Source: a bacterium
GTDB taxonomy: Bacteria > Krumholzibacteriota > Krumholzibacteriia > LZORAL124-64-63
DNA length: 64,000 nt
Direction of reading: 5' to 3'
Assembly (NCBI GenBank): GCA_024231905.1
Contig: JAAEQC010000102.1
Coordinates: forward strand, 234,974 to 298,973
Each line of letters begins with the position of its first letter. The first letter of the stretch is position 1. The notes under the pieces are model-generated. The model did no database searches. It saw only the letters and a program-made list of their open reading frames with translations, and was not told where the DNA came from. Below, piece after piece: positions 17,266 to 62,423 of the stretch. A program made the translations under genes and the position numbers.

Positions 17266-17496
17266 GTTCCATCCTTTCGCGGCGTTGGGTCGTGGACCGA
17301 TCCTAGCGCAGGTCCGGGCCGCTGGAAACCGTCTTCCGCACAGGGCTCCCGCCCGGGGCTGGTGCCTGGACAACCCGTGTCCCGTCTGGTAACTTGGGCC
17401 CTTCGCGGAGGCTCGGCGACCGGGTGCTCCCTGGCCGCTGCGGCGGCCGTTTGTCGTAGGGGTCTGATCGCTCTGTCCGGCGACTCCGCTCGACCG

Positions 17497-17519
17497 TTCT
17501 GTCCGATCATTCTGTCCGA
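17497..17519 (+). promoter_or_regulatory. Direct repeat TTCTGTCCGA x2 (13-nt spacing; a third TCTGTCCG copy at 17472) upstream of selA
   Basis: Seen directly in the 276-bp divergent intergenic region between the amidase and selA. Function is unknown. Confidence 0.2.
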
Positions 17520-17541
17520 CCACTGGGGGCCAACCGGTTTC

Positions 17542-40100: not shown

Positions 40101-40181
40101 TTGTTGTTGCCCGGGAGGCCGTGTGTTAGCTTGGGCCGGTCCGAGGCCCTTTGGAGTCATCAGAGAGACGATCCGGGTACC

Positions 40182-45840: not shown

Positions 45841-45895
45841 GGTTTACAGGTGCGCGCCGTCAGTGGTATCATGGTAGCTGAACAACGACAATGAC

Positions 45896-48532
45896 TTGAG
45901 CGCAATGGCGGCGCCTTCCGGGCGGCGTCCGTCGCGCCGTTGCGGATTCTGCCCGGGGGTGGATCCGGAACTTGCCCGCCGGGAGATCTCTTTGGCCAAA
46001 CGCCGCACGGACCAGGAGCGCAGCACCGCCGCGAAACCGGCGGTGCCAGCGTCCCAGTCGCCCAGGCTCCGTACCTGGCTCCTGGTGACGGGCGCCCTCC
46101 TGCTGACCCTGCTCCTGCTCTATCCCGGGGCCGCGTTCCGCGGCGAGATCTTTGGCAGCAGCGACGCGGCCAACTCCGACGCCTTCCGCCTGGCCGGCGA
46201 CCGGTCCCTGGCCGAGGGCTCATACCCCTTGTGGAATCCCTACCTCTTCGCGGGCATGCCCACCTTCGGCTCCCTGTCCTACGTACGATTCCTGTATCCG
46301 CCTTCCATCCTGCTGATGCTCCTGCAGGAAAGCCTGGGATTCCCGCCGTTGACCTGGCTGCTGGCCCACCTGCTCTTTGGCGGCCTGGGCATGGCCTGGT
46401 TCCTGTCCCGCTGGCGGTTGCCGGTGGCTACCCTCGTTCTGGGCGGCGTACTGTGGCTGTTGCTGCCCAAGGTCGTGGCTTGGGGCGTCCACGGTCACGG
46501 CACCAAACTCGGCGCTGCCATGTACCTGCCCTGGATCGTGGGCTGGGCCTGGCGGGTCCTGGACGGTGGCGGCGCCCGGGCGGTGGGCATGACGGGGCTC
46601 CTGCTGGGCCTGCAACTGCTACGGGGCCACGTGCAAATCACCTACTACACCCTGCTGCTGGTGGGGTGGCTGGCCGTGTGGAACGGCCTGTGGCCCCTGG
46701 AGGCGGCGGTCCGCGCCAGGATGGCCGTCCGCTGGCGGCGCTGCGCCATGCTGGGGGGCGGTCTGGCTCTGGGCTTCCTGGTGGGCGCCCTGCTGCTGGT
46801 GCCCGTCCACGGCTACGCGGACCTGTCCATCCGCGGCCAGGATACCTCCGGCGGCGGGGGTGTGGGCATGGACTACGCCACGGGCTGGTCCCTGGCCCCG
46901 GCGGAACTGGGCACCTTCGTGCTGCCGGCGGCGGCGGGCTTCGGGCAGGCCACCTACATGGGCCTCATGCCGTTCACCGACTACCCCAACTATCTTGGCA
47001 TCCTGTTGCTCGCATTGGCGGCCGCCGGTTGGTGGCGCGGCGACCGCAGCCTGACCGTGGCCCTGGCCGTGGCGGCGCTGCTGGCGGTGTTCGTTTCCTT
47101 CGGACGGTACGGCTTCGGTTTCTATGAACTGCTCTACCGCCTGTTGCCCTACTTCAACAAGTTCCGCATCCCGTCGATGATCCTGGTGCTCACGGGATTC
47201 GTGGCCATCGTGCTGGCGGCGCGCGGGGTCGCGGCCTGGCGCGAGGGGACGACGCCCTGGAACCGTCCAGTGGTGCTGCCGGCGGTCCTGGGCCTGGCGG
47301 GGGTGGCCCTGCTCCTGGCGGGAGCTGCGGAATTGGCCAAGGGGACCTACGCCTCCGGTCTGGAGTCCCTGGCCGCCAGGGCTGGCCGTACGGCGGTCCC
47401 GGTGCTTCTGGACACGGCGTGGGATCTGCACAAGGCCAGCCTGGTACGCATCGGCCTGATTCTCATGGCCGCCGCCTCGGCCTTGTTCTACTCCACGCGC
47501 TCGGAGGCCTTCCGCCGCGGCGGTCTGGCCTGGGTGCTGCTCGGATTGCTGGCGGTGGATCTGGCGGGCGTCGATCGCCTCGTGATCCACCCGGAAAAGG
47601 GACTGTCCACGGTGGTCGCCGACGGCTCCGGCGGCGGGCGCCTGGTATCCGCGACCAAGCTCACGGGGCTGCCGACGCGCCAGTCCGCTGAGAGTTCCCC
47701 CTTGGCCCGGACCCTGCTCGCCGAGACGGGCCACGACCGCGTGTGGCCCCTGGGACGGCAGAGCGGCATGAACACCTGGATGGCCGACGGCGTGCATTCC
47801 CTGGGCGGCTACCACCCGGCCAAGCTTGCGGGCTACGAGCAGATCCGCCGCCGCCTCTTCGGCGCCGAGCCCGCCGGCCGCCTGGCCAACTGGCTGGGGG
47901 CACGCGTGGTGGCCTGGGAGGGGACCCTCTCCCCGGCGGACCTGGACTTTCTGGACGCCACGGGCCTGGACCTGGAACGCGCCTCCCGCGGCGACGGCCG
48001 CACAGCCTTGCACCGCAACCGCGCCGCCCTGCCGCGGGCGCGTCTCGTGACCGCCTGGCGCAGGGCATCCGCGTTGCCGGAAGGGGACGCCCTGGAGCCG
48101 TTCCTGGACGCGATCCAGGCCGGCCGCCTGGACGTGACATCCACCGTGACCCTGGACCGGGAGCCCGTGCCGGCCCCCGGCGAGACCGCGAATCCCTTGC
48201 CGGCGGTGGAGTTCCTGACCGACGGCCTCAACGAGGTCGTCCTGGAAACGACGGCCCCGGTCCCGGCCCTGCTCTTGCTTGCGGACATGATGGCTCCTGG
48301 TTGGCGCGTCGAGGTGGACGGCCGCCCGGCCGAGCTGCTGACGGCCGACCTGGTGCTGCGGGCGGTGGCCCTGGAGGCCGGCCGCCACACGGTGCGCTTC
48401 CATTACAGCGACCCGTCGGTGCGGACGGGCCTCCTGCTCAGTCTGACCGGACTCCTGGGAGTCGCGGTCCTGATCCTGTTCCCCTTCCTGCGCCGCCGGC
48501 TGGCGGCGTCCCCGGGTGGCGACCATGAGTGA
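45896..48532 (+). CDS. YfhO-family GT-C membrane glycosyltransferase
   Basis: About 13 TM helices followed by a large extracytoplasmic C-terminal domain, consistent with YfhO. TTG 45896; ATG 45905 is an alternative start. Confidence 0.65.
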   Translation: MSAMAAPSGRRPSRRCGFCPGVDPELARREISLAKRRTDQERSTAAKPAVPASQSPRLRTWLLVTGALLLTLLLLYPGAAFRGEIFGSSDAANSDAFRLAGDRSLAEGSYPLWNPYLFAGMPTFGSLSYVRFLYPPSILLMLLQESLGFPPLTWLLAHLLFGGLGMAWFLSRWRLPVATLVLGGVLWLLLPKVVAWGVHGHGTKLGAAMYLPWIVGWAWRVLDGGGARAVGMTGLLLGLQLLRGHVQITYYTLLLVGWLAVWNGLWPLEAAVRARMAVRWRRCAMLGGGLALGFLVGALLLVPVHGYADLSIRGQDTSGGGGVGMDYATGWSLAPAELGTFVLPAAAGFGQATYMGLMPFTDYPNYLGILLLALAAAGWWRGDRSLTVALAVAALLAVFVSFGRYGFGFYELLYRLLPYFNKFRIPSMILVLTGFVAIVLAARGVAAWREGTTPWNRPVVLPAVLGLAGVALLLAGAAELAKGTYASGLESLAARAGRTAVPVLLDTAWDLHKASLVRIGLILMAAASALFYSTRSEAFRRGGLAWVLLGLLAVDLAGVDRLVIHPEKGLSTVVADGSGGGRLVSATKLTGLPTRQSAESSPLARTLLAETGHDRVWPLGRQSGMNTWMADGVHSLGGYHPAKLAGYEQIRRRLFGAEPAGRLANWLGARVVAWEGTLSPADLDFLDATGLDLERASRGDGRTALHRNRAALPRARLVTAWRRASALPEGDALEPFLDAIQAGRLDVTSTVTLDREPVPAPGETANPLPAVEFLTDGLNEVVLETTAPVPALLLLADMMAPGWRVEVDGRPAELLTADLVLRAVALEAGRHTVRFHYSDPSVRTGLLLSLTGLLGVAVLILFPFLRRRLAASPGGDHE

Positions 48533-49250
48533 GCGTGTGGTGAACAAGGCCGTGGTGATCGTTCCGACCTACAACGAGGCGGAGAACGTGGGCCGCCTGC
48601 TGCCGGCCATCCTCGAGCGGGACGAGCGGCTGTCGGTGCTCGTGGTGGACGACAACTCCCCGGACGGCACGGCGGACGTGGTCAAGGCCCTGCCCGGGTT
48701 CGGCGACCGGATCATGATCCTCGAACGGCCCTGCAAGGCGGGCCTGGGCGCCGCCTACATCGCCGGCTTCCAGTGGGTGCTGGCCAATACGGAGGCCGAC
48801 GCCGTCTTCGAGATGGACGCGGACTTCAGCCACGCCCCCGACGCCCTGGACGAGTTTCTGGTGGAGATCGAAACCCACGACCTGGTCCTGGGCAGCCGCT
48901 ATCTGGGCGGCATCACCGTGGTGAACTGGCCCCTGTCCCGCCTCTTCCTCTCGGTGGGTGCGAACCTCTACGCCCGCGTCGTCACCGGCATGCCCATCCG
49001 CGATTGCACCGGCGGCTTCAAATGTTTCCGCCGCACGACCCTCGAACAACTCCCCCTGGGGGAGATCAAGAGCGACGGCTATTCCTTCCAGATCGAACTC
49101 AATTACCACTGCTGGCGCCGGGGGCTGACCATCAAGGAGATCCCCATCATCTTCACGGACCGTGTGGTGGGCGTCTCCAAGATGTCGCGCCGCATCATCG
49201 CCGAGGCCATGTGGATGGTGTGGGCCCTGCGCCTGAGGCGAATCCCTTGA
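48525..49250 (+). CDS. Polyprenol-monophosphomannose synthase-like GT2 (Ppm1/DPM1-like, soluble)
   Basis: VVIVPTYNEAENV...VVDDNSPDGT...EMDADFSHAP...GSRY is a DPM1-like catalytic domain without a TM anchor. Overlaps the YfhO stop by 8 nt. Confidence 0.8.
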   Translation: MSERVVNKAVVIVPTYNEAENVGRLLPAILERDERLSVLVVDDNSPDGTADVVKALPGFGDRIMILERPCKAGLGAAYIAGFQWVLANTEADAVFEMDADFSHAPDALDEFLVEIETHDLVLGSRYLGGITVVNWPLSRLFLSVGANLYARVVTGMPIRDCTGGFKCFRRTTLEQLPLGEIKSDGYSFQIELNYHCWRRGLTIKEIPIIFTDRVVGVSKMSRRIIAEAMWMVWALRLRRIP

Positions 49251-49270
49251 CCGGGGGCAACCTGTTTCCG

Positions 49271-51382
49271 GTGAAGCTGGCCGTGGTCATCGTCCACTAC
49301 AACACGAGCGACGACCTGGCCCGCTGTCTGGAATCCCTGAACGCCTACGGGCCGCCGGACGACTTCCGGATCGTGGTGGTGGACAACGCCTCCCGCGACG
49401 AGGGCCTGGCCGAGGTGCACCGCCGCTTCCCCGACTGTGAGTGGATCTTCAACGCGGACAACCAGGGCTACTCCCGCGGCTGCAACCGGGGCCTCGCCGC
49501 AGTGGAGGCCGAGTACTACCTGCTGCTCAACCCGGACGTGGTGGTCAAGCCCGGGGCCCTGGCCCGCCTGCTGGAATTCGCCGACGCCCACCCGCGGGCG
49601 GGCATCATCGGTCCCCAGTTGTTGAACGAGGACGGCACCATCCAGCATTCGTGCCGGCGCTTCTACACCTTCTGGACCCTGGTCCTGCGCCGCACCTTCC
49701 TGGGCAGGCTCTTCCCGGACAGCCGGCCGGTCCGGCGCCATCTCATGCAGGACTTCGACCACCGCTCGGCCCGTCCGGTGGACTGGCTCCTGGGCGGCTG
49801 CCTGCTTGTGCGCCGCAGCGCCGTCGATCGTACCGGCCCCATGGACGAGCGTTTCTTCCTCTACTTCGAGGACGTGGACTGGTGCTACCGCATGTGGCGC
49901 GCGGGCTGCGAGGTTCTCTACACCCCCGACGCGCGCTTCGTCCACCGACACAGGCGTTCCAGCGCCCAGGGCGCCACGAGCCGTTCCTTCTGGTTGCATC
50001 TGGGCTCCCTCATCTCCTTCTACGAGAAGTGGGGCGCGCTGGTGTGGCTGTTCAAGAAGTGGCGGGATCCCCTGCTGCTGTTCGTCATGTGGCTGCTGGA
50101 CATGACCGGCCTGGCGGCAGCCTTCGGACTGGCCTACGGGCTGCGAAATCTGGGGCACGACCTCTTCCCCGAGCAACTCTACCCCTTCGCCGAGTACCGG
50201 CCCCTGCTCCTGTTCGGGCTACTGCTGGCGACCCTCACCTTCGTCCTGGCGGGACGCTACCGCGGCGAGCATCTGCGCCGGCGGCGATCCGTGGTTGAAC
50301 ACCTGCAACAGACGGGCATCGTGGCGGTGCTCATGCTGGCCAGCACGTACCTGGGACACCTGGAGGTGGTCAGCCGGGCGGTGCTCCTGATGTTCGTGCC
50401 GCTGCTGGTGGTTTTCACGGCCCTGGGGGACGGTCTGGTGCGGCGCGTGCTGCGGCGGCTGGAACGCGGACACCTCTCCCTGGAACGCACGCTGCTGGTG
50501 GGACCGGCAGCGGTCTGGCGCACCTGGCTCGACCGGGCCGGGGACCTGGCGGCCCAGGGGGTCGACGTGGCCGGCTTCGTGGACGATCCGGGCGCCCTGG
50601 AATCGTTGCCGCCCCTGGCGGGTGGCACGGTGCCCTGGCTGGGCCGCCCGGCCGAGGCCGCGGACGTGGCCGAGCGGTACCGCATATCCCAGGTAGTGTT
50701 CCGGGATCTGCCGCCGCCGGGCGATCCCCTGTGGACGGCCGTGGGTGCCCTGCGCCGCATGCGAGTCCGCCTGCGCTGGCAGGGGGACGGCGTGTGGCTC
50801 CTGGCGGCTGCCACGCGCATGGAAGTCTTCGGAGGCGGGCTGAGCGCAGTTCAGGGCCAGGCGGGACGGCGAGCGGCCGGAGCCCTGGGGCGCCGTTTGT
50901 GCGGCGCGGTGGCGGGACTGCTGCTGGGCGTGGCGGCAGCGCTGCCCTGGGCCTGGTTGCGGCTGGTGGATGTTCGGCAAGGGCGTGCGCGGATCGACCG
51001 TGTGACCGCCTGGGACCGCTGGCGCGGGGGCACGCCCCTGGTACTCGCCTTGGCCACCGACGGCCAGGTGAAAGGTCTGGTCTGGCAGTGGCCGCTGGCC
51101 TGGTCCCTCCTGACCGGACGGGTGGCCATGTGGGGCGAACAAGCCCGGGCGGACGGGCCGCCGCCTCCGCCGCCGACCACCGGGGACCTCATGGATTTCT
51201 GGCGCGCCGAACCGGCGCCGCCGGGTTTGACGGGCGCCTGGGCGGCAGCCGGGGGAGGCGGCCGGCTGCGGGCGATCTGCGCTCGCCTGTGGCGCGATCC
51301 GGGCGGATTCGGTAACGTCGCGGAAACAGTACGAGCTAGGGAAGTCGTCGAGAAGGACCCTCCGGGCACCGAGGTGGAATGA
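49271..51382 (+). CDS. Fusion protein: N-terminal GT2 glycosyltransferase plus C-terminal multi-TM and CoA-binding-like module resembling the non-catalytic N-terminal half of WcaJ-type sugar transferases
   Basis: GT2 motifs (VVIVHYNTSDD, VVVDNASRDEG, FYFEDVDWCYR). Then 4-5 TM helices and LLVGPAAVWRTWLDRAGDLAAQGVDVAGFVDD...RISQVVF. No Bac_transf catalytic domain. GTG 49271; TTG 49247 is an alternative start. Confidence 0.65.
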   Translation: MKLAVVIVHYNTSDDLARCLESLNAYGPPDDFRIVVVDNASRDEGLAEVHRRFPDCEWIFNADNQGYSRGCNRGLAAVEAEYYLLLNPDVVVKPGALARLLEFADAHPRAGIIGPQLLNEDGTIQHSCRRFYTFWTLVLRRTFLGRLFPDSRPVRRHLMQDFDHRSARPVDWLLGGCLLVRRSAVDRTGPMDERFFLYFEDVDWCYRMWRAGCEVLYTPDARFVHRHRRSSAQGATSRSFWLHLGSLISFYEKWGALVWLFKKWRDPLLLFVMWLLDMTGLAAAFGLAYGLRNLGHDLFPEQLYPFAEYRPLLLFGLLLATLTFVLAGRYRGEHLRRRRSVVEHLQQTGIVAVLMLASTYLGHLEVVSRAVLLMFVPLLVVFTALGDGLVRRVLRRLERGHLSLERTLLVGPAAVWRTWLDRAGDLAAQGVDVAGFVDDPGALESLPPLAGGTVPWLGRPAEAADVAERYRISQVVFRDLPPPGDPLWTAVGALRRMRVRLRWQGDGVWLLAAATRMEVFGGGLSAVQGQAGRRAAGALGRRLCGAVAGLLLGVAAALPWAWLRLVDVRQGRARIDRVTAWDRWRGGTPLVLALATDGQVKGLVWQWPLAWSLLTGRVAMWGEQARADGPPPPPPTTGDLMDFWRAEPAPPGLTGAWAAAGGGGRLRAICARLWRDPGGFGNVAETVRAREVVEKDPPGTEVE

Positions 51383-53787
51383 GCATGCGGCACACAGGAA
51401 GCGGAAGACTCATGACGGCCTGCGCCCTGGCGTTGCTGGCGGTGGCGGCCGCCACGGCGGCAGCGGCGCCCGTATTCGAGCCCCTGACCCGGGCCCGCGA
51501 AGTAAGCACCCTGCTCGAACTGGACGGAAAGGTCTTCGGGGGCACGGGCGACGGCGGCGTGTTCGTATGGGACGCCGACGATCCCGGGCAGTTCGAACGC
51601 TGGACCGCCGGCACCCAACTGGGCAGCGCCCGGGTAGTGGATCTGGCCTGGACCGGACGCTACCTGTGGGTCGCCACCGACGACGGCGGCCTGACCCGGG
51701 TGGAGGACCCGGCCTCGGACGCACCGTCTTTCCGGCAGATCGGCTCGACCATGTCCACCTTCGCCACCACCGCCGTGGCCGGTCTATTGCGGGGCGACCA
51801 GGAACGGGTCTGGTACGGTCTGGGTGACGGCGGTCTGGGGGAGATCACCGACGGCTTCGACGGTTCGGTTTATACCACCAGCGACGGTCTGGTCAGCGAC
51901 ACGATCCGGGCGCTCCACATCCACGACGGTGAACTGTGGATCGGAACGCCCGCCGGCATCTCCCGTTTCGCCGACGGGGTCTTCCACGACGCCACCGCCG
52001 GCCTGGCCGGCCTGAACACCCGCGTCTTCGTCACCGACACCGCCGGCGATCTCTTCGCCGCCGGCAGCGGCGGTGTCCATCGCTGGGACTCCTCCGGGGA
52101 GGCCTGGGTATCCCTGGGCGGTATCGGCCGTACAGTGGTCGGCCTGGCGGTGGTGGCCGACGATCTCTACGCGCTGGGCGCCTACGCCGGCGGAACGGCG
52201 ACCCTGCACCGGTGGAACGGCACCGGATTCGACGACCTGGCTCTGCCCGAGCCCCGGACCCTGGCCACCGGCGGCGGCACGGCGGTCTGGCTGGGCGGCC
52301 GGATCGACGAACCCGGCATGCAGGTGAACCGTTCGGGACTGGCCTTCTACGCACGTCTGGACGCGGGCGGCGCGACCACGGTCTGGCAGCCGGCCCTGAC
52401 CCTGCCCGCCAACTGCGCGGGGGTGACTTTCGGCGCCGACGGCCGCCCGTGGCTCGGCTCCCGCTGGGGCGAGGCCTTCTCCGGTCGCCGGGATGACGGT
52501 ACCTGGGAAAACATCTACGAGATAGCCACGGTGGCCAACGACTCCTCCGGTCTCATCAACCAGATCGCACCCATTCTGGCCATGGCCACCGGCGCCGATG
52601 GCGTGGTCTGGGTGCCCCAGACCGGCTCCGGCGTGCTACGCCACGATCCGGCCACGGGCCGAACCGACCAGATCCGCCCCTTCAACAGCGGCCTGTCAGG
52701 GAATTCGCTGATCGGCGCCGTGGGGCATCCGGACGGCCCGGTTCTTTTCCTGCACGACTGGCTGGACACGGACGACAAGGTGGACGTGCTGGTGGACCCG
52801 GTCCACTGGCGCAATCCGGCGAACTGGCTCAGCCTGCCCCTGGGATCGGGCGGCCTGGGCGACGGTCCCAACGTATGGGACGCCCACGTGGCGCGGCGCG
52901 ACCAGATCTGGTTCGCTGTGGAGGGCACGGGTCTGGTGCGCTGGGACGTCAACGGCCTGAGCGCCGGACCCGACGATCCGCTGACCTGGCTCGATCAGTC
53001 CGACGACCACTGGACCGCACCCGTGAACGACTTCCCGAATACCTTCCTCGACCCGACCCAGGCGCGAGGCATCGACGACGGCCCAGGCGGTTCCCTGTGG
53101 GTGGGCGGCAACGGCGTGGTGCGCTTCCGCTACGACGGCGGCCTGATCACCACCCTGGACGACCTGGGCACGGCCGCCGGCGACGAGGGCGGCCTGAGCA
53201 ACAGCCGCGTGTACGACGTGGCCACCGACCGCCACGGGTACCTGTGGGTGGCGAACGCCTCGGGTCTGGACCGGGTCCGGCTCGGAGCGGGCGACCCTGT
53301 GGTGGACTCGTGGTTCGACGCCCTGACCTATGCCACGGACGGCGGCATCAACGGCCGCTACCTGTCCACCGCCATCGCCGACATGCCTGGCTCGAACTAC
53401 GACTTCGCGCGCCTGGCCCTGGATTCCGACCGCGGGCGCCTCCTGCACAGCGGCGACCGGGGTGTGTCCCTGGTCGACGTGGGCGGGCCGGTGGGTGCGG
53501 CGAGCGGCTCCGCATCGGCGCAACTCTATCCGAATCCCTGGCGCCCGGAACTGGGCGACGGTCTGCTCAGGATCGGCGGTCTGGGCGTGGAACCGGGGGA
53601 GACGGTCGAGGTGGGCATCTACACCGTCGAAGGCCAGCTGGTCTACCAGGATCCGACAGTGGCGCCGGACACGGGCTTCTGGCGAGGCGTCAACCGGGTG
53701 GGCAACCCGGTGGCGACGGGCCTGTACGTGGTGAAGGTGTCCTGGCGCGGAGAACACCTGATGCGGACCCTGGCGGTGGTCAGGTGA
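51379..53787 (+). CDS. Secreted beta-propeller (Reg_prop-like repeat) protein with a C-terminal T9SS-type / FlgD-Ig-like sorting domain
   Basis: Signal peptide (LALLAVAAATAAAAP). Repeated GG..R.D..G.LW.G. propeller-blade motifs. C-terminal roughly 90 aa LYPNPWRPELGDG...GLYVVKVSWRGEHLMRTLAVVR matches the Por/T9SS C-terminal-domain pattern. ATGA overlap upstream. Confidence 0.65.
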   Translation: MSMRHTGSGRLMTACALALLAVAAATAAAAPVFEPLTRAREVSTLLELDGKVFGGTGDGGVFVWDADDPGQFERWTAGTQLGSARVVDLAWTGRYLWVATDDGGLTRVEDPASDAPSFRQIGSTMSTFATTAVAGLLRGDQERVWYGLGDGGLGEITDGFDGSVYTTSDGLVSDTIRALHIHDGELWIGTPAGISRFADGVFHDATAGLAGLNTRVFVTDTAGDLFAAGSGGVHRWDSSGEAWVSLGGIGRTVVGLAVVADDLYALGAYAGGTATLHRWNGTGFDDLALPEPRTLATGGGTAVWLGGRIDEPGMQVNRSGLAFYARLDAGGATTVWQPALTLPANCAGVTFGADGRPWLGSRWGEAFSGRRDDGTWENIYEIATVANDSSGLINQIAPILAMATGADGVVWVPQTGSGVLRHDPATGRTDQIRPFNSGLSGNSLIGAVGHPDGPVLFLHDWLDTDDKVDVLVDPVHWRNPANWLSLPLGSGGLGDGPNVWDAHVARRDQIWFAVEGTGLVRWDVNGLSAGPDDPLTWLDQSDDHWTAPVNDFPNTFLDPTQARGIDDGPGGSLWVGGNGVVRFRYDGGLITTLDDLGTAAGDEGGLSNSRVYDVATDRHGYLWVANASGLDRVRLGAGDPVVDSWFDALTYATDGGINGRYLSTAIADMPGSNYDFARLALDSDRGRLLHSGDRGVSLVDVGGPVGAASGSASAQLYPNPWRPELGDGLLRIGGLGVEPGETVEVGIYTVEGQLVYQDPTVAPDTGFWRGVNRVGNPVATGLYVVKVSWRGEHLMRTLAVVR

Positions 53788-55236: not shown

Positions 55237-56301
55237 GTGGAGGTCGGCATCCAGGCGACAACGCCCGCGGATTGGCCCGCCCTGGTGGCGGCCGATCCGG
55301 CGGCCGACTACTTCCATACCGCTGCCTGGAGTTCCATCGTCGCCCGTCACGTGCCCGGCGCCCGCGCCCTGTGGATCACCGTGCGCGACGCCGGCGAACT
55401 CGTGGGCGGCCTGGCTGCCGTTGCCCTGGGCGGTACGGTGCGACGCTGCCACTCGGGAGCCTTCGGTTGTGCCGGCGGACCCCTGGTGGCCGACGGCGAC
55501 GCCCGCCGCGGCCCGGTCATCGCCGGCCATCTCCTGGACGAACTGGTCGGTCGGCGGGGCGGTCTCCTGGCATCGGTCGGCGTCTCCCTCAATCCGGACC
55601 ACGAAGAACGCTGGGGCGGACGCCTCGCTGCCGACGCCCGTTTCCGGCGGGTCGACACTCCCGCGGCCGTGGTCTCCCTGGACGGCGGACCTGACGCCGT
55701 CGCCGCCCGCATGCGCAAGAGCAAGCGCAACGAACGCAACCGCGGCCTGCGGCGCGGTGCCGAATTCCTGGTGACCCGGGACCCGGATCACCTGGCGGCC
55801 TACCATCGCATCCACGTGCAGGCAGCCGGCGCCTGGGGCCAACCGGCGGTCCCTTTGGCCATGCTGCAGGACCTGCTCGACCAGGGGGCGGGCCCCGAGG
55901 GGGGCGAAGCCTACTTCGTAGCCGTGCGCTGCGAGGGACGGATCGTGGGCGGGCACCTGAACTTCCACCTGGGCGGGTCGGTCACCGCCTGGCATGGCGT
56001 CACCGATCCGGTCCTGGCCCGCACCCACTTCCCGTCCACCGTGGCCGTGTGGGGGGACGCGGTGGAGGCCTGCCGCCGCGGTGCGACCAGCCTGGATCTG
56101 GGGGGCAGCGGCGGCATCCCCTCCCTGGAGTCCTTCAAGCGGGGCTTCGGCGCCGAACGCCGGGAGCGTGGCTGGTACGTGGCGGAAACGGCGCCGCTGC
56201 GGCTGCTGCGGAGCCTGCGCGGCCTGGTCCGGCGCAAGGAAGGCAACGGGCGACGCTGGCACGACGGCGCCACCGGCGCGTCCGGTGGAGGTACGCCGTG
56301 A
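55237..56301 (+). CDS. FemAB-like / GNAT-fold (Acetyltransf_6) acyl- or aminoacyl-transferase
   Basis: Duplicated GNAT-like halves (YFHTAAWSSIV...; VTAWHGVTDP...LDLGGSG...SLESFKRGFGA), as in FemAB-family proteins. GTG start. Confidence 0.55.
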   Translation: MEVGIQATTPADWPALVAADPAADYFHTAAWSSIVARHVPGARALWITVRDAGELVGGLAAVALGGTVRRCHSGAFGCAGGPLVADGDARRGPVIAGHLLDELVGRRGGLLASVGVSLNPDHEERWGGRLAADARFRRVDTPAAVVSLDGGPDAVAARMRKSKRNERNRGLRRGAEFLVTRDPDHLAAYHRIHVQAAGAWGQPAVPLAMLQDLLDQGAGPEGGEAYFVAVRCEGRIVGGHLNFHLGGSVTAWHGVTDPVLARTHFPSTVAVWGDAVEACRRGATSLDLGGSGGIPSLESFKRGFGAERRERGWYVAETAPLRLLRSLRGLVRRKEGNGRRWHDGATGASGGGTP

Positions 56302-57611
56302 GACTCCTGGCCGCGGGCGCCCGCATCCTGTCCGGCCGCGTGGCCCAGATCCTGGCCAACGCCGCAGTGGTTTTCTGGGTGGCCAAGACCCTGGGACCCA
56401 CGGGGCAGGGCCACTACAGTCTCACCGTGGCCGTGGCCCAGCTCGCGGCTGCCCTCCTGGCCGGCGGCATGGGCCTGGCGGCGGTGCCACCCCTGCGCCG
56501 GGACCGCATCCCGGCGGCCCGCATGGTCTCGGTCCAGGCCGGCTGGGCCGGCGCTACGGGGCTGGTGCTGCTGGGCGTGGCCGCCCTGGCCGGCGGTGGG
56601 GCGGTGGGCGCCTTCTTCGCCCGGCATCTGGGCTGGTCGCCGGGGCTGGCCTTCGCCGTGGCCATCGGCGCCACCGGATTGCTCACCTTCGAGATCTTCT
56701 CCTACGACCTGCTGGCCCGTGGCAGGCTGGTCATCGGTTCGGCCATCAACGGCTGGCGCGCCGCCGGCCACCTGGTGATCGTCGGCACCGCGGGCCTGGC
56801 CGGGATGCTCGGCTTCGCCCAGGCGGTGGGGGCCTTCGCCCTGGCCCAGTGTGCGGGCGCGGCGGTCCTGGTGGGGGTCGTCCTGCGGGAGATCCGCCGG
56901 CCTTGGCCCCGGCCCGGCGCCAAGCCCGGTCCGCCCGCGCCCCTGCGCGACAAGGAGCTCCCGGCGGACCTGGCGTCCTACTCCCGCCTGCGGTTGGTCC
57001 TGTTCAACCTTCAGCGGGGTTGGCTGGGACAGCTCTCGGCCGTGGCCTACTTTCTGCTGCTGCGCCTGGACCAGGGACTGCTGGCCCGCTACCACGGTGC
57101 AGCGGAGGTGGGGGTGTACTCGGTGGCGGTGCATCTGGGCGAGATGCTGTGGTTGTTGCCCGGGGCCATGACGCCTCTGCTGGTCCATACCTCGGCGGCC
57201 GACGCCGGCGATCCGGACCGTAACCGCACGGCCGTGCGGGCCGTGGGCATCGGCATGGTCGTGACCCTGGCCGCGGCGGTACCCCTGGCCCTGGTGGCGG
57301 GTCCCCTGCTGTCCCTGTTGGCCGGCGGCGCCTATGCCGGCGCGGTTCCGGCCCTGCGGGCCCTGCTGCCCGGCATCGTGGCCTTCGCCCCGGGGGCGGT
57401 CCTGGCCGGCGACTTCATCGGTCGCGGTAAACCCCATTGGAACACCCAGGCCAGCCTGTTGACCGTGGTGGTGAACCTGGCAGCGGGCCTGTGGCTCATC
57501 CCCGAGCACGGGGCCGTGGGCGCGGCCTGGTCCAGCACGGTGGCCTATGCCTGCGGGTCGGCTCTGATGCTGATTCGCTTCCGGCAAGCGATCCGCCGCG
57601 ACCAGGCCTGA
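56298..57611 (+). CDS. MOP-superfamily polysaccharide flippase (Wzx-like)
   Basis: About 12-14 TM helices with Wzx-like topology. GTG overlaps the upstream stop (GTGA). Confidence 0.65.
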   Translation: MRLLAAGARILSGRVAQILANAAVVFWVAKTLGPTGQGHYSLTVAVAQLAAALLAGGMGLAAVPPLRRDRIPAARMVSVQAGWAGATGLVLLGVAALAGGGAVGAFFARHLGWSPGLAFAVAIGATGLLTFEIFSYDLLARGRLVIGSAINGWRAAGHLVIVGTAGLAGMLGFAQAVGAFALAQCAGAAVLVGVVLREIRRPWPRPGAKPGPPAPLRDKELPADLASYSRLRLVLFNLQRGWLGQLSAVAYFLLLRLDQGLLARYHGAAEVGVYSVAVHLGEMLWLLPGAMTPLLVHTSAADAGDPDRNRTAVRAVGIGMVVTLAAAVPLALVAGPLLSLLAGGAYAGAVPALRALLPGIVAFAPGAVLAGDFIGRGKPHWNTQASLLTVVVNLAAGLWLIPEHGAVGAAWSSTVAYACGSALMLIRFRQAIRRDQA

Positions 57612-57653
57612 TAGGCCTCTAATTCCCCTTTTTCGCACCTGCCTGTTTTTTTT
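57604..57653 (+). terminator. Palindromic hairpin AGGCCT-gat-AGGCCT followed 27 nt later by a T8 run; weak terminator candidate after the glycosylation operon
   Basis: The inverted repeat and the T tract are seen directly. Their geometry is non-canonical, so confidence is low. Confidence 0.2.
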
Positions 57654-57674
57654 CGACTTTCCTGGAAAAGGAGG

Positions 57675-57703
57675 TTGACACTCCTGTGGTGGCGTCCTAC
57701 AGT
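57675..57703 (+). promoter_or_regulatory. P_mra-like sigma70 promoter (TTGACA-N17-TACAGT), followed by GTGG-containing direct repeats that are candidate MraZ boxes
   Basis: Perfect -35 at 57675-57680, a 17-nt spacer, and a -10-like TACAGT at 57698-57703, about 125 nt upstream of mraZ. GTGG motifs at 57717, 57737 and 57746. Confidence 0.5.
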
Positions 57704-57827
57704 GCGGAGGTGATCAGTGGGGAAAAAGGGTTAGATGTGGTGAAAGTGGCGGGAGGCCGAAGGAGCGGCATAAAACTCAAAGGATTGAGCGTAACTCCCG
57801 CCACTAAAACCACTTGAACGGATTGAG

Positions 57828-58304
57828 ATGACCGACCAAACCCACAGCACGGACCAGGGCGCGGCCTTCACCTTTCATGGCTCCTACACGCGAGCGGTGG
57901 ATGTGAAAGGCCGTTTCAACCTGCCCTTCCGGTTCCGGCACCAGGGCGCCGACGACGAGAAATACGTGGTCTCCAAGGGACCTGACGGCAATCTGGCCGT
58001 CCATCCCCACAGCGCCTGGATTGCCGCCTACAACCGGATGATGAATGGTGCGCCCGGACCCGAGCTGCGGAGGAACCTGCGGCGCATGAGCCGGGACAGC
58101 TCCCCGGTCCAGCCCGACGCCCAGGGGCGGATCGCTGTGCCGGCGGAACTGCTGGCGGGCGTGGGGATCGGTCGCAAGGTGACCGTCATCGGAGTCGGCG
58201 CCTACATGGAACTCTGGGATCCGGAAGCCCTCGATACGGGCGACGCCGTGGCCGGCGAACCGGATACCGCGTTCAACGACCTCTTCTTCGGGGGAGGGAG
58301 CTGA
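57828..58304 (+). CDS. mraZ: Transcriptional regulator MraZ
   Basis: Duplicated MraZ halves (VDVKGRFNLP...; AQGRIAVPAELL...), first gene of the dcw cluster. Confidence 0.85.
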   Translation: MTDQTHSTDQGAAFTFHGSYTRAVDVKGRFNLPFRFRHQGADDEKYVVSKGPDGNLAVHPHSAWIAAYNRMMNGAPGPELRRNLRRMSRDSSPVQPDAQGRIAVPAELLAGVGIGRKVTVIGVGAYMELWDPEALDTGDAVAGEPDTAFNDLFFGGGS

Positions 58305-58450
58305 CGCACCACGATGTCCGGCGGCAAGGATGCCAAGCCGGGATCGGCCGGGCGGTGAACGCTGATGGAGCGGCGACCGCCCGGCCCGGGCAAACCAACG
58401 AGCAACGACATCCGCCCACGGAAGGGCGACACTTGGGAAGGAGCCCGCAA

Positions 58451-58864
58451 ATGCCGAGAGAGACGACCCGTCAGGCCGCGAGGCAGGAGGCCGCACGCAG
58501 CACGATGGAGATTCAGGTCCAGCACCAGGAACGGACTGTGCGGGTCTCTCTCTCGGGAATCCTCGATCGCGAAGGGGTCGCCGCACTGGCCGCCCGGGTG
58601 GCTCCCGGGCTGGCCGGCCGCGGTTGTCACGTCGTGCTCGATGGAACGGGCTTGACCCACATGGACTACCGTGCTACCCGCCCGTTCATAACCTGGCACC
58701 GCCGCCTGCGCACCTACGGCCACGAACTCTTCCTGCAGGGCTGGAGTGATTACCTCAAAGCCATCCTGGTCATGGAAGACTGGGACGTGGCTCCAGGCGA
58801 TCCGCCGGCCGGCTTGCCCACCCTCCGTCACCTGGGGAGCATCGCCGCCGTACGGATGCCATGA
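58451..58864 (+). CDS. STAS-domain protein (anti-sigma-factor-antagonist-like) inserted between mraZ and rsmH
   Basis: MEIQVQHQERTVRVSLSGILDREGVAALAARV...VVLDGTGLTHMDYRATRPFITW is a SpoIIAA-like STAS fold. GGAAGGA RBS 9 nt before ATG 58451; the stop overlaps the rsmH ATG (ATGA). The ORF is open from 58355, so the start is uncertain. Confidence 0.5.
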   Translation: MPRETTRQAARQEAARSTMEIQVQHQERTVRVSLSGILDREGVAALAARVAPGLAGRGCHVVLDGTGLTHMDYRATRPFITWHRRLRTYGHELFLQGWSDYLKAILVMEDWDVAPGDPPAGLPTLRHLGSIAAVRMP

Positions 58865-59781
58865 CCTCCGCGCCCCACGTCCCGGTGCTGCTGGAGGAGA
58901 CCATCGAGCTGCTCCAGCCCCGACCGGGCCGGCGCTACGTGGACGGTACTTTCGGATTCGGCGGCCACGCGACCGCCCTGCTGGACGCCGGAGCCGAGGT
59001 CCTGGGTCTCGACCTGGACGACCGGGCCCTGGCCACCTGCCGCGATCTGGCCGCCGCACGGCCGGAATGTCACTGCCACTACGGATCCTTCCGCGACCTG
59101 TCCGGGGCGCTGGCCGCCTGCGGCTGGCGCCGGGTGGACGGTGTCCTGCTCGATCTGGGCGTGAACTCCCTCCAGCTGGACGATCCGGAACTGGGCTTCA
59201 GCTATCGGGCCGACGGTCCCCTGGATCTACGATTCGACCGGGAGCAGGGGCGGCCCGCCGCCGCCCTGGTGGCCGAACTCGACGAGACGGCTCTGGCGGA
59301 CATCTTCTGGAAATGGGGCGAGGAAAGGGCCAGTCGGCGGTTGGCCAGGGCCGTGGTCCGGGCGCGGGCGGAGGAGCCAGTGGACACCACCGGCCGCCTG
59401 GCCGCGGTGATCACGGACACCCTGCCCCGGGGTGTGAAGCCCATGCCGACCCTGAGCCGGGTTTTCCAGGCCCTGCGCATCGCCGTCAACGAGGAACTGG
59501 AAGCGCTGGACGAGGCCGTCGAGAGTCTGCCTGGAGTGCTGAACGCCGGCGGGCGCTTCGTCGTCATCGCCTACCACTCCCTGGAGGACCGCCTGGTCAA
59601 GCGCTTCATCGACCGCGAGCGGAAGGACTGCCTGTGTCCGACCGAGCTTCCGGTGTGCGCCTGCAAACACGCCCGGAGCCTGCGCCGCCTGACCCGGGGC
59701 GCGGTGAAGGCCGGTCCCGACGAGGCCGCCCGCAATCCCCGTTCCCGCAGCGCGCGGCTGCGCGCCGCGGAACGTCTTTGA
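58861..59781 (+). CDS. rsmH: 16S rRNA (cytosine1402-N4)-methyltransferase
   Basis: HVPVLLEE...YVDGTFGFGGH...DLGVNSLQLDDPELGFS...ALRIAVNEEL is a canonical RsmH/MraW. Confidence 0.9.
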   Translation: MTSAPHVPVLLEETIELLQPRPGRRYVDGTFGFGGHATALLDAGAEVLGLDLDDRALATCRDLAAARPECHCHYGSFRDLSGALAACGWRRVDGVLLDLGVNSLQLDDPELGFSYRADGPLDLRFDREQGRPAAALVAELDETALADIFWKWGEERASRRLARAVVRARAEEPVDTTGRLAAVITDTLPRGVKPMPTLSRVFQALRIAVNEELEALDEAVESLPGVLNAGGRFVVIAYHSLEDRLVKRFIDRERKDCLCPTELPVCACKHARSLRRLTRGAVKAGPDEAARNPRSRSARLRAAERL

Positions 59782-59802: not shown

Positions 59803-60318
59803 ATGCACCGCCAAGACGCCAACGGCTGGACCATGGGTCCGGCGAACGTCCAGCGGGTAGGGGCCGCCATGGCCCACCGCCGCGGATTGCGCCACAGCCG
59901 CATCCTGCGCTGGCTGCTGGGAGGCAGCGCCCTGGCTTCGTCGCTGGCCGTGGCCCTGGTGGTGACCGTGCAGGTGACGGATCTGCGCGAGTCCGTGGCC
60001 ATCCTCACCGACCGCCAGGCCTGCCTGGCCGCTCGCAATGCGGGGCTCCAGGCCGACTGGGCCTGCTCCACTCGGCCAGAGGTGGTGCGTGAGCGCGCCT
60101 CGCGCGAGCTGGGCCTGATCGTACCCGCCGAACCGGAATTCGTACTCGTGGCCCGCCGTAGCGTCCCGGAAGCCGGACCGCGCCTGTGGCGGCGGGTCCT
60201 GGAAGGGTTAGGCGGCGGCACGTCGGCCCATGCGGCCACGGCGGTAGCTACGCCCCTGCGCACCGGCATGATCTCCGTCCTGCCCCTGGCCGCTCCGCGG
60301 GCCGGGAGCGGATCGTGA
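59803..60318 (+). CDS. ftsL: Cell division protein FtsL-like (single TM)
   Basis: Position between rsmH and ftsI, one TM helix (LASSLAVALVVTVQV), GGAGGGA RBS. There is essentially no sequence conservation, as is usual for FtsL. Confidence 0.55.
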   Translation: MHRQDANGWTMGPANVQRVGAAMAHRRGLRHSRILRWLLGGSALASSLAVALVVTVQVTDLRESVAILTDRQACLAARNAGLQADWACSTRPEVVRERASRELGLIVPAEPEFVLVARRSVPEAGPRLWRRVLEGLGGGTSAHAATAVATPLRTGMISVLPLAAPRAGSGS

Positions 60319-62423
60319 CGGCCGACGGCGGACGTTGGCGCTTCGCGGTCCTGCGGCTCGGCGTGGCGGTGCTGGCGGTGGTCCTGGCCGTGCGCGTGCT
60401 GCATATCCAGGTCTTCCGTCACGACGAATTCCACGCCATCGGACAGGGACAATGGTGGCAGGAAAGCGCCATTCCCGCCGTCCGCGGTGACCTGCTCGAC
60501 CGCCGGGGCCGGCCCCAGGCCATCTCGGTGATCACCTGGAGCGTGGGGGTGGCGGGCTCGTTGGTGGAGGACGCCGGTGAACTGGCCAGCACCCTCGGAC
60601 CGATCCTCGACTGCGACACGGGCCGCCTCGAACGGCGCCTGGTCCAGGCCGGTGACGCCCACGTGGTCCTGGACCGCGAAGTGGTACTCACCCGGGAACA
60701 GAAAACCACCCTGCGGCGCTTCAAGGCCGTGACCGTGGACACGGTGCGCTCGCGGGTCTACCCGGCCAACGGCGTGGGCGCGTCCTACATCGGTTTCTGC
60801 CGGCAGGGACCGGACACGACCATCTCTACCGGACTGGAACACAGCCTGCGCCACGTGCTGGCCGGCAAGCCGGGACGGTCCCAGGCAGTGGCCACGGCAA
60901 TTCCGGGCCGGGACCTGGGCCACGTGGTGGTCCGCGAGGCCGTCCATGGCCACGACGTGGTGCTCACCCTGGACGGGGAACTGCAGGCCATCGCCGAGCG
61001 CCGCCTGGCCGAAGCGGTGGAACGGTACGGGGCCAAAGGCGGCTCGGTGCTCGTCATGACACCCACCGGCGGCGACGTGCTCGCCGCCGCCAGCTGGCCG
61101 CTGGTGGCCGACCGGGACGCGCGCCAGGAGGACGGGGCGGTCTGGCAGAATCGCAACTTCAACTGGATGTTCGAGCCGGGCTCGGTGGCGAAGATCTTCA
61201 CCACCGCCTCGCTGCTCAGACACGCCGCCATCGACACGGGCTCGATCTTCGACTGCAGCGACCCCTGGATCGACGGCGTGAAGATCACCAATGACGGCGA
61301 TCACCAGTACGGCGACCTGGCCCTGCTGCCGGCTTTTGCCAAGTCCAGCAACATCTACTTCGCACGGGCCGTGGCCAACCTGGGAACCGAGGAATTCCAC
61401 CGGGACCTGCTGGACTTCGGCTTCGGCCAGCTCACGGGGGCGCCCTATCCAGGCCAACCCCGGGGTCTGTTGCGGGAGCCGTCCCGGTGGTCGGGACGCT
61501 CCAAGCCCACCCTGGCCATCGGCCAGGAACTGGCGGTCACGCCGCTGCAGTTGGGGTTGGCCGTGTGCGCCGTGGCCAACGGCGGCACGCTCTATGCGCC
61601 GCGCCTGGTACGCGAGATGCGCGACCCGGTTACCGGTCGGCTCGAACGGTGTCCCGAAGTGGCCTTGCGGCGGGTCATGGCCGAACCCCTGGCCGCCCTG
61701 CTCAGGCAGGCCATGGGCCGCGTCGTGGAGCAGGGGACCGGCATCGGCACGCGCCTGGACTGGATCGACATCGGCGGCAAGACCGGCACGGCCCAGAAGA
61801 GCTGCGACGGCCGGGGCTACACCCGGGGCGCCTACGTATCGAGCTTCGCGGCCATCGTGCCCTGGCAGGATCCGCGGCTGGTGGTGCTGACGGTGCTCGA
61901 CGAACCCCGTGGCGTCCACCATTACGCGGCCGAGAGCACCGTGCCCCTGTGCCGGGACATCCTGGAGGACGTGCGCCGCAGCACCGACTGGCTCACCGAC
62001 GCCCCCGGCGGCCGCACCATCATCAGGACCGACGACAGGTGGGCCCGGGCGGGCCGAGTGCCCGATGTGCTGCATCTCTCGTCGGCCCGGGCGGTCCAGC
62101 GGTTGGCCGCCGCCGGGCTGGCGGCCACCGGCGCCGAGCGCGAAGGAGTGGTCGTGGACCAGGTTCCGGCGGCGGGCACCCGTTGCTCCGAGGGCTCGTC
62201 CGTGGAGCTCGTGGTGGCCGGCCGTTCCGACCCGGGTACGGGCAACGCCCTGTGCCCCGACTTTTCCGGACTCAGCAACCGCCAGGTTCGCGGTCTCGCC
62301 GCGCGCCTGGGTATCCCGGTACGCATCGCGGGTGCCGGTTATGTCAAGAACCAGACCCCGCGCCCGGGGACCGTCCTGGACCGGGCTCCGGTGATCCTGC
62401 GGATGGAAGCGCCATGGCGGTGA
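60315..62423 (+). CDS. ftsI: Peptidoglycan D,D-transpeptidase FtsI (class B PBP) with a C-terminal PASTA domain
   Basis: N-terminal TM helix, dimerisation domain, transpeptidase motifs SVAK (SxxK), SSN and KTGTA, and a C-terminal PASTA-like segment (VPDVLHLSSARAVQRLAAAGL...VVDQVPAAG). GTG overlaps the ftsL stop. Confidence 0.85.
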   Translation: MTADGGRWRFAVLRLGVAVLAVVLAVRVLHIQVFRHDEFHAIGQGQWWQESAIPAVRGDLLDRRGRPQAISVITWSVGVAGSLVEDAGELASTLGPILDCDTGRLERRLVQAGDAHVVLDREVVLTREQKTTLRRFKAVTVDTVRSRVYPANGVGASYIGFCRQGPDTTISTGLEHSLRHVLAGKPGRSQAVATAIPGRDLGHVVVREAVHGHDVVLTLDGELQAIAERRLAEAVERYGAKGGSVLVMTPTGGDVLAAASWPLVADRDARQEDGAVWQNRNFNWMFEPGSVAKIFTTASLLRHAAIDTGSIFDCSDPWIDGVKITNDGDHQYGDLALLPAFAKSSNIYFARAVANLGTEEFHRDLLDFGFGQLTGAPYPGQPRGLLREPSRWSGRSKPTLAIGQELAVTPLQLGLAVCAVANGGTLYAPRLVREMRDPVTGRLERCPEVALRRVMAEPLAALLRQAMGRVVEQGTGIGTRLDWIDIGGKTGTAQKSCDGRGYTRGAYVSSFAAIVPWQDPRLVVLTVLDEPRGVHHYAAESTVPLCRDILEDVRRSTDWLTDAPGGRTIIRTDDRWARAGRVPDVLHLSSARAVQRLAAAGLAATGAEREGVVVDQVPAAGTRCSEGSSVELVVAGRSDPGTGNALCPDFSGLSNRQVRGLAARLGIPVRIAGAGYVKNQTPRPGTVLDRAPVILRMEAPWR

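Follow-up and report, generated by a model that had tools for sequence, protein, structure and literature searches.

A STAS-domain gene at the mraZ-rsmH junction of Krumholzibacteriota-type division operons and a conserved GGA-hairpin array ahead of its start

Few gene orders in bacteria are as conserved as mraZ-rsmH-ftsL-ftsI. [quoted passage not shown] Across the Krumholzibacteriota-type loci examined, the gene neighbourhood marks this STAS gene as a fixed part of the mraZ-rsmH-ftsL-ftsI operon. Its stop codon overlaps the start of rsmH, and its own start is preceded by conserved RNA hairpins that present GGA in their loops. The reading we favour, tentatively and at a little short of an even chance, is that the product is a phosphorylation-independent STAS adaptor, with RsmH its likeliest partner, and that control of its synthesis acts at the RNA level.

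The original prediction, made from the letters of the window, had placed a STAS open reading frame (ORF) between mraZ and rsmH, and this placement is borne out by matches of the three products to Pfam MraZ, STAS_2 and Methyltransf_5 at the coordinates listed in Table 1. RsmH also scores 288 bits against TIGR00006 (cutoff 154), and rsmH is followed in the window by an ftsL-like gene, ftsI and murE. It had further proposed that the dcw clusters of relatives be inspected for the same insertion. All three genomic contexts that we looked up, with homologues 57-66% identical to the STAS protein, have the order mraZ-STAS-rsmH-ftsL-ftsI-murE. We then fetched 63 loci, 55 by scanning GTDB with a single genome for each species and eight from other contigs, and located the genes by tblastn with the window proteins. 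The order mraZ-STAS-rsmH was found in all of them with a single exception, a locus lacking mraZ where the contig ends; the insertion is thus present at the mraZ-rsmH junction in every locus that reaches mraZ. Some of these loci bear stray NCBI organism names: eleven are labelled 'uncultured Fibrobacteraceae' (L016, L023, L031, L033, L044, L046, L048, L050, L055, L056 and L058), and others 'Gemmatimonadales' (L037), 'Gemmatimonas sp.' (L052), 'Fibrobacter sp.' (L057) and 'Latescibacterota' (L061). As the oddly named loci are collinear with the rest and their RsmH proteins are 57-62% identical, the names are probably loose or wrong labels of metagenome-assembled genomes (MAGs). Loci L052-L054, L057, L059 and L061 have identical coordinates.

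The encoded protein scores 45.1 bits against STAS_2 (PF13466; gathering score 29.2) and 27.9 bits against STAS (PF01740; gathering score 22.6), and a precomputed PF13466 match is on record for every homologue listed. An AlphaFold2 model based on a 30-sequence alignment has predicted local distance difference test values above 90 over residues ~20-112 and the element order β1-β2-α1-β3-α2-β4-α3 of the STAS fold, with low confidence in the N-terminal tail MPRExTRQxxRQEAA. Foldseek searches of the PDB with this model returned TM1442 (1vc1), RsbV (6m36) and SpoIIAA (1tid/1th8) as best matches (E ~3e-6; probability 1.00 for 1vc1, 6m36 and 1tid), while MlaB chains (E ~3e-4) and the STAS domains of SLC26 proteins ranked lower. 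The STAS fold that had been predicted is therefore upheld by profile search, model and structural comparison, and the outcome named in advance as fatal to the prediction, an ORF with neither a STAS fold nor conservation in relatives, is clearly not what was found. Identity across 55 species is 42-94%, and dN/dS (the ratio of nonsynonymous to synonymous substitution rates) between the window gene and its near relatives is 0.22-0.39, values that are rough because dS is near saturation. Synonymous variation is free in the core, where Gly65, Leu68 and Arg74 are each written with four or five codons. Mean Kimura distances are 0.70 for the STAS protein, 0.76 for FtsI and 0.89 for MraZ. On these grounds we regard the STAS ORF as certainly a genuine protein-coding gene.

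A word-indexed, single-sequence search of 5.8 billion proteins yielded 147 homologue clusters at 52-94% identity, and a profile search 219; the few named homologues come from MAGs of Candidatus Krumholzibacteriota/-ia. A filter-only hidden Markov model (HMM) scan of 1.84 billion representatives at 50% identity gave 54 matches at E<=1e-3, of which ~22 are family members or fragments; past a gap in score lie generic STAS proteins with at most 45 bits. Because the family matches are so few and are set apart from generic STAS proteins by this gap, the subfamily is, by these searches, narrow and isolated. The family is basic, with a median isoelectric point (pI) of 10.2. Some sources label homologues 'anti-anti-sigma factor', 'MlaB' or, in a few cases, 'sulfate permease'; the last are automatic names. 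Membership in the STAS domains of SLC26/SulP transporters was not found in the loci examined, where no anion transporter is fused to the protein and the STAS proteins stand alone with 129-145 amino acids (aa). Two longer gene calls were considered and rejected as fusions: P0122 (436 aa), seemingly STAS joined to RsmH, leaves the frame after STAS residue ~87 and again past the RsmH N-terminus and is a doubly frameshifted call, and P0135 (181 aa), in which STAS follows a foreign N-terminus, probably comes from a chimeric contig.

The ORF originally described, 58355..58864 on the plus strand with a GTG start and 169 aa, is present in the window with these ends, but its start had to be replaced. 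The true start is most likely the ATG at 58451, because several kinds of evidence agree on it. Members of the homologue clusters (147-219) are nearly all 136-140 aa long and begin with MPRE; a GGGAAGGAGCCC ribosome-binding site is invariant 3-7 nt 5' of this ATG in the related loci; in many of these loci stop codons close the upstream frame just 5' of the ATG; and the 96-nt 5' extension has a composition like that of non-coding DNA (position-3 GC 0.66, against 0.78 in the ORF). GTG 58355 was dropped as a start for these reasons. The extension also holds an RNA hairpin of the conserved type described below.

The original prediction had noted that the STAS stop and the rsmH start share the letters ATGA, and had taken this to imply co-translation with the dcw genes. 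The overlap is there, and it measures exactly 4 nt (ATGA or GTGA) in 64 of 64 loci, which represent 58 distinct coding sequences. A Shine-Dalgarno core 5-16 nt 5' of rsmH was seen in only 3 of 53 loci, the other 50 being without one, whereas the STAS gene has an invariant AAGGAG. Given the 4-nt overlap and the general lack of a Shine-Dalgarno at rsmH, production of RsmH seems to require translation of the STAS cistron; on a plain reading, we infer that RsmH is made by termination-reinitiation after that cistron. If this is so, the initiation region of the STAS gene would control both proteins. Co-translation is thus supported by the same two observations. The link to mraZ is variable by comparison, with a mraZ-STAS spacer of 33-219 nt across loci, and the rsmH-ftsL junction measures +119, -4 and +18 nt in three genomes.

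The region that would exert this control is structured. We aligned positions -50 to +30 around the STAS start in 38 loci and found two hairpins, H1 and H2. In most loci H1 has the form GCCC-ACGGAG-GGGC, and its loop is invariant at A-N-G-G-A over the 38 loci. Compensatory changes occur at four of four core pairs, giving stems such as CACTC/GAGTG, GGATCC/GGATCC and GCCGCCG/CGGCGGC, and 88% of the cells pair on a MAFFT alignment that was not fitted to structure. The covariation score of H1 is 0.28, as compared with ~0.05-0.09 for slid controls, and was reached by none of 500 shuffles. H2 typically reads GGG-AAGGAG-CCC and holds the Shine-Dalgarno in its loop, ~20 nt past the GGA of H1. Many loci have in addition a distal hairpin, its stem 6-9 bp long, with arms that are lineage-specific yet complementary; as these distal hairpins were gathered by requiring pairing, they are reported descriptively and without a covariation test. 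In the predicted fold of the window's mraZ leader (57704-57840), both leader hairpins of Table 1 lie within a long enclosing stem (z-score -4.4; 0 of 200 shuffles as stable), and most related loci have equivalent leader hairpins with stems that differ and are still complementary.

Hairpins with an ANGGAN hexaloop are concentrated in these regions. Seven of the 12 on the plus strand of the 64-kb window sit in 57760-58772, and over 57 distinct loci there are 10.4 per kb of leader and spacer sequence but 0.21 per kb in the rest of that strand, a difference of ~50-fold. A tally made without regard to loop sequence (stems of at least 5 bp) returned CGGA, ACGGAG, AGGA and AAGGAG as the commonest loops in leaders and spacers, and random GC triloops in controls. 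No Rfam family matched the region at E up to 1 save for a chance match to a small nucleolar RNA. Constraint at the nucleotide level evidently runs into the STAS ORF: the first ~8 codons are nearly without synonymous variation, with CCG for 46 of 49 Pro, the rare AGA for 43 of 49 Arg, GAG in 55 of 55 cases and ACC in 45 of 45. RNAalifold found no pairing partner for these constrained codons. Over 58 distinct loci CAG is also held within codons 2-8, and codons 14 and 16 are invariably GCC and GGC (58451-58498 being the first ~16 codons).

In published CsrA sites GGA lies in a six-base hairpin loop in 44 of 55 ligands obtained by SELEX, one site lies on the Shine-Dalgarno, and the sites spanned by a CsrA dimer are separated by 10-63 nt (PMC7652899). 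H1 and H2 together show the corresponding features: H1 presents GGA in a hairpin loop, and H2 has a second GGA on the Shine-Dalgarno, ~20 nt away. CsrA homologues in Krumholzibacteriota are listed in a 2026 survey (PMC13443453). We consider CsrA-type control of the STAS start region a well-founded hypothesis, with another RNA-binding protein as an alternative reader of the hairpins. The context of the H1 loop, C-ACGGAG-G in general and C-ACGGAA-G in the window, fits the CANGGANG core that Schubert and colleagues reportedly described in 2007.

Only one promoter-like site was found in 57500-59000, the sigma-70-like element ahead of mraZ (10 of 12 matches; shuffles expect 0.1), and no terminator-like site was seen between mraZ and the STAS gene. 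As judged from this arrangement, the STAS gene is co-transcribed with mraZ and rsmH. Three short repeats follow the -10 box, GTGGGG at 57717, GTGGTG at 57737 and GTGGCG at 57746, separated by 20 and 9 nt, and a further GTGGTG lies at 57686, between the -35 and -10 elements. These GTGG(G/T/C)G repeats resemble MraZ binding repeats, which are defined as GTGG[A/T]G in B. subtilis (10.1101/2022.02.09.479790).

Table 1. Coordinates of the STAS gene, its neighbours and the associated sequence elements in the window
Feature	Position	Strand	Remarks
Sigma-70-like promoter, TTGACA-17 nt-TACAGT	57675..57703	+	5' of mraZ
Hairpin GCCG-AAGGAG-CGGC	57756-57769	+	mraZ leader; pattern scan
Hairpin CTCA-AAGGAT-TGAG	57776-57789	+	mraZ leader; pattern scan
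ACGGAT motif	57818-57823	+	Just 5' of the mraZ ATG
mraZ	57828..58304	+	158 aa; Pfam MraZ, 59.6 bits, two repeats
mraZ-STAS spacer	58305..58450	+	146 nt; four GGA-loop hairpins
Hairpin GGC-AAGGAT-GCC	58323-58334	+	mraZ-STAS spacer
Hairpin CGCTG-ATGGAG-CGGCG	58360-58375	+	mraZ-STAS spacer
H1, CGCCC-ACGGAA-GGGCG	58413-58428	+	mraZ-STAS spacer
H2, TGGG-AAGGAG-CCCG	58434-58447	+	mraZ-STAS spacer; loop is the STAS Shine-Dalgarno
STAS-domain gene	58451..58864	+	Corrected start (most likely); 137 aa
N-terminal tail MPRExTRQxxRQEAA			Residues 1-18 of the STAS protein, conserved; STAS core ~19-112; C-terminal tail variable
ATGA, STAS stop (TGA) over rsmH start (ATG)	58861..58864	+	4-nt overlap
rsmH (16S rRNA m4C1402 methyltransferase)	58861..59781	+	306 aa; Methyltransf_5, 308 bits

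The original prediction had also envisaged SpoIIAA-like partner switching driven by phosphorylation, for which a conserved phosphorylatable Ser was to be sought; the alignments contain no such residue. In a HMMER alignment the MDSSG of SpoIIAA (1th8_B) falls on LDYRAT, with Tyr73 in the place of the phospho-acceptor Ser. Among the 58 distinct loci, residue 73 is Tyr in 82% and otherwise Phe; neither Ser nor Thr occurs there in the 30- and 14-member alignments, and one degenerate member has Pro. Thr76 is frequent in the family. The protein scores 31.5 bits against the anti-sigma-factor antagonist model TIGR00377, below its cutoff of 53.45. A Pfam scan of 34 proteins of the 64-kb window found no HATPase_c anti-sigma kinase, PP2C phosphatase or sigma factor; what turned up were housekeeping genes, ribosomal proteins, enzymes of riboflavin synthesis, FtsY and SelA, and a long glycosyltransferase/polysaccharide cluster. 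The gene calls of the three related loci that were read likewise hold no kinase, PP2C or sigma gene. Since the Ser is absent, the TIGR00377 score is below cutoff and no kinase or PP2C is among the 34 window proteins scanned, classical phospho-dependent partner switching is not supported by the sequences; they neither establish nor exclude a connection with a sigma factor. The segments LSGILD (β2-α1), LDGxxLxHLDYRAT (β3-α2) and WSDYLKAI (start of α3) are invariant or nearly so, and by analogy they make up the face by which SpoIIAA/RsbV-type proteins bind their partners.

According to the adaptor reading, then, the STAS protein would bind its partner independently of phosphorylation through the canonical STAS contact face (LSGxLD, HLDYRAT, WSDYLKAI), and the likeliest partner would be RsmH, or RsmH on the 30S subunit. 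Synthesis of the STAS protein and RsmH would be gated post-transcriptionally, probably by a CsrA-type RNA-binding protein that would bind H1 ~20 nt upstream and bridge to the GGA in the Shine-Dalgarno hairpin H2. RsmH is favoured as partner because its coupling is invariant and the link to mraZ is variable, because the STAS protein is basic, and because, as weak evidence, a partial correlation of pairwise distances controlled for FtsI reaches 0.53 for STAS-RsmH and 0.29 for STAS-MraZ; the coupling of the two cistrons would also favour a fixed protein ratio. A role as RsmH adaptor is plausible since in E. coli a lethal excess of MraZ is rescued by co-expression of the downstream rsmH (10.1101/2022.02.09.479790), and since loss of RsmH alters translation of mRNAs with structured starts (PMC13317604). 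A wider version seems improbable to us, if still worth keeping in view: a three-part mra module in which the STAS protein would be a dedicated subunit or regulator of RsmH, or the link in the MraZ-RsmH antagonism, with synthesis of both proteins switched by a CsrA-type RNA-binding protein at the GGA hairpins of the dcw mRNA.

These proposals need to be interpreted cautiously, as several observations weigh against them. A 4-nt overlap is the commonest gene overlap in bacteria and alone is no proof of a complex between the products. The partner is named by inference and not directly, and to our knowledge no complex of a STAS protein with a methyltransferase has been described. The mirror-tree signal is weak, and both common phylogeny and the low noise of RsmH as a marker confound it. 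On the RNA side, tblastn found no csrA in the window or in any fetched locus or flank, and few of the Krumholzibacteriota CsrA homologues are predicted to work in the B. subtilis assay (PMC13443453). Some distal hairpins have GC stems of 8-9 bp, more stable than those of typical SELEX-selected CsrA sites, and the GGAG/GGAT loops could instead be Shine-Dalgarno-like ribosome standby sites.

Other explanations were weighed on the same evidence. A classical anti-sigma antagonist of the SpoIIAA/RsbV type would be phosphorylated by a kinase and reactivated by PP2C, thereby coupling a sigma factor to division. The closest solved structures and the best PDB sequence matches are indeed SpoIIAA, RsbV and TM1442, and the LSGxLD and LDxxxLxxxD segments are SpoIIAA-like; yet the missing Ser, replaced by Tyr73 or Phe, largely refutes this explanation, and with the TIGR00377 score and the lack of HATPase_c, PP2C and sigma genes in the window and in the related gene calls it becomes very unlikely. 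If phosphorylation is set aside, the protein could be a non-phosphorylatable antagonist or decoy of an unlinked partner (an anti-sigma factor, kinase or other regulator), its activity set by abundance alone. STAS proteins regulated without Ser phosphorylation exist, among them M. tuberculosis RsfA and E. coli MlaB, conservation of the present protein is highest at the canonical interaction face, and its expression would follow MraZ-controlled transcription and possibly CsrA-type control. We think this doubtful, as the unvarying coupling to rsmH, set beside a distance to mraZ that varies, suggests a relationship within the operon, and no candidate partner is visible in the sequence searched. 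MlaB, which likewise works without regulatory phosphorylation, suggests instead an accessory that stabilises an ATPase of the ATP-binding cassette (ABC) type, for example FtsE of FtsEX. STAS_2 is the best Pfam match, and the 'MlaB' labels and the MlaB chains among the Foldseek matches point the same way; however, neither the window nor the loci with gene calls read has a gene for an ABC transporter within the operon or flanking it, comparing profiles with E. coli MlaB gave an insignificant result (probability 4%, E 0.01) and the structure is nearer to RsbV and SpoIIAA, so that we give such a role very little credence.

An anti-repressor of MraZ has more to recommend it. Here the STAS protein would bind MraZ and relieve or tune its autorepression, replacing or aiding RsmH in antagonising MraZ. 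The STAS gene lies directly 3' of mraZ in every locus that reaches it, repeats like MraZ boxes follow the promoter, and the rescue of MraZ excess by rsmH in E. coli (10.1101/2022.02.09.479790) attests to such antagonism within the operon. The spacing of 33-219 nt, however, is occupied by regulatory hairpins, which uncouple mraZ from the STAS cistron, the STAS-MraZ distance correlation lies below that of STAS-RsmH, and MraZ evolves much faster than the STAS protein; we therefore consider an anti-repressor unlikely. There is finally the possibility of a spurious GC-rich ORF, or of a leader cistron whose peptide sequence is irrelevant. The region lies in a 69%-GC genome and is overlapped on both strands by many long spurious ORFs, and rsmH does appear to depend on translation of the STAS cistron. 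Against this stand the identity retained over 55 species, the free synonymous change in the core, the Pfam matches and the confident fold, which leave the idea with virtually no chance of being correct.

The junction matters because the canonical cluster poses a puzzle: why a 16S rRNA methyltransferase accompanies a division repressor, and how RsmH and MraZ oppose each other. Right at the mraZ-rsmH junction, an additional protein has become fixed throughout a candidate phylum, and if its partner were identified it would become clear whether MraZ or RsmH is the one in need of an adaptor. The GGA-hairpin array is a separate candidate for CsrA-type control of a dcw operon. Were the three-part module true, ribosome modification and division-gene expression would come directly under nutritional or post-transcriptional control. 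A STAS protein without a phospho-switch is useful for annotation too, given the 'anti-anti-sigma factor' and 'MlaB' labels now in use. Full-text literature searches found no paper that links a STAS protein to mraZ or rsmH or that describes this STAS gene, and no report of CsrA-type control of a dcw operon; the genomic papers on Krumholzibacteriota concern metabolism. The STAS fold is known; as far as we can tell, the subfamily, its fixed place in the dcw cluster, the apparent slaving of rsmH translation and the GGA array are undescribed.

Some further features of the window and its relatives were noted. Directly 5' of mraZ are a FemAB-like acetyltransferase gene (Acetyltransf_6; 55237-56301) and a gene for a MurJ/Wzx-type flippase (56049-57611); the two ORFs overlap by ~250 nt, so the flippase probably starts further downstream. 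Both genes are likewise upstream of mraZ in L001-L007, relatives at 57-66% STAS identity, and the conserved block thus reaches 5' of the dcw cluster. Further upstream, 37897-53787 holds a long same-strand cluster of GT2/GT4 glycosyltransferases with a sugar epimerase/dehydratase, a Reg_prop-repeat protein, a TMEM260-like protein O-mannosyltransferase (40101-42932) and a membrane protein weakly like YfhO, below the Pfam cutoff; it looks like an envelope glycosylation or polysaccharide locus running into the dcw cluster. The ftsI gene of the window lies at 60186-62423. In the relatives L002, L004 and L006, precomputed Pfam matches place a C-terminal PASTA domain past the transpeptidase domain of FtsI/PBP3; PASTA on such enzymes is better known from PBP2x/PBP2B-type proteins of Gram-positive bacteria. 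In the 869-aa maximal ORF at 16357-18966, the SelA (selenocysteine synthase) domain occupies residues 481-846, which reflects either an over-extended start, common at 69% GC, or a large N-terminal extension.

Compared with known systems, the leader and spacer differ from UpsM, the extended dcw 5' leader of Rhodobacter sphaeroides, which is a terminator-derived small RNA 5' of mraZ that depends on Hfq and RNase E and has neither a GGA-hairpin array nor an extra protein gene. They are closer to the CsrA/RsmA-repressed leaders of glgC and hcnA and to the sponge RNAs CsrB, RsmY and RsmZ, with which they share several A(N)GGA hairpins with six-base loops and, as in the leaders, one GGA in the Shine-Dalgarno ~20 nt on, inside the 10-63 nt bridging range; they differ in being candidate sites outside any Rfam family, in having some much longer and GC-richer stems, in lying inside a polycistronic dcw mRNA and in belonging to a lineage with divergent CsrA homologues. 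The protein resembles MlaB of the MlaFEDB lipid transporter as a small stand-alone STAS_2 protein that would act by binding without a phospho-switch, but its gene has no ABC transporter partner in the gene calls read, the sequence similarity is insignificant and the structural match is weaker than that to RsbV. With SpoIIAA, RsbV and TM1442 it shares size, a single STAS domain, the order of elements, the LSGxLD segment and the β3-α2 loop. It differs from them in the Tyr or Phe at the Ser site, the score below the TIGR00377 cutoff and the absence of linked kinase, phosphatase and sigma genes, the 18-residue conserved N-terminal tail, the dcw operon setting, the coupling to rsmH and a basic median pI of 10.2, as against ~5.9 for a SpoIIAA sequence of B. 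subtilis. The operon itself agrees with mraZ-rsmH(mraW)-ftsL-ftsI of E. coli, B. subtilis and Mycoplasma in gene order, in a promoter with GTGG repeats and in having mraZ first; it departs from the canonical mra operon in the extra cistron between mraZ and rsmH, in an rsmH whose translation is apparently slaved to that cistron, and in its long structured leader and spacer.

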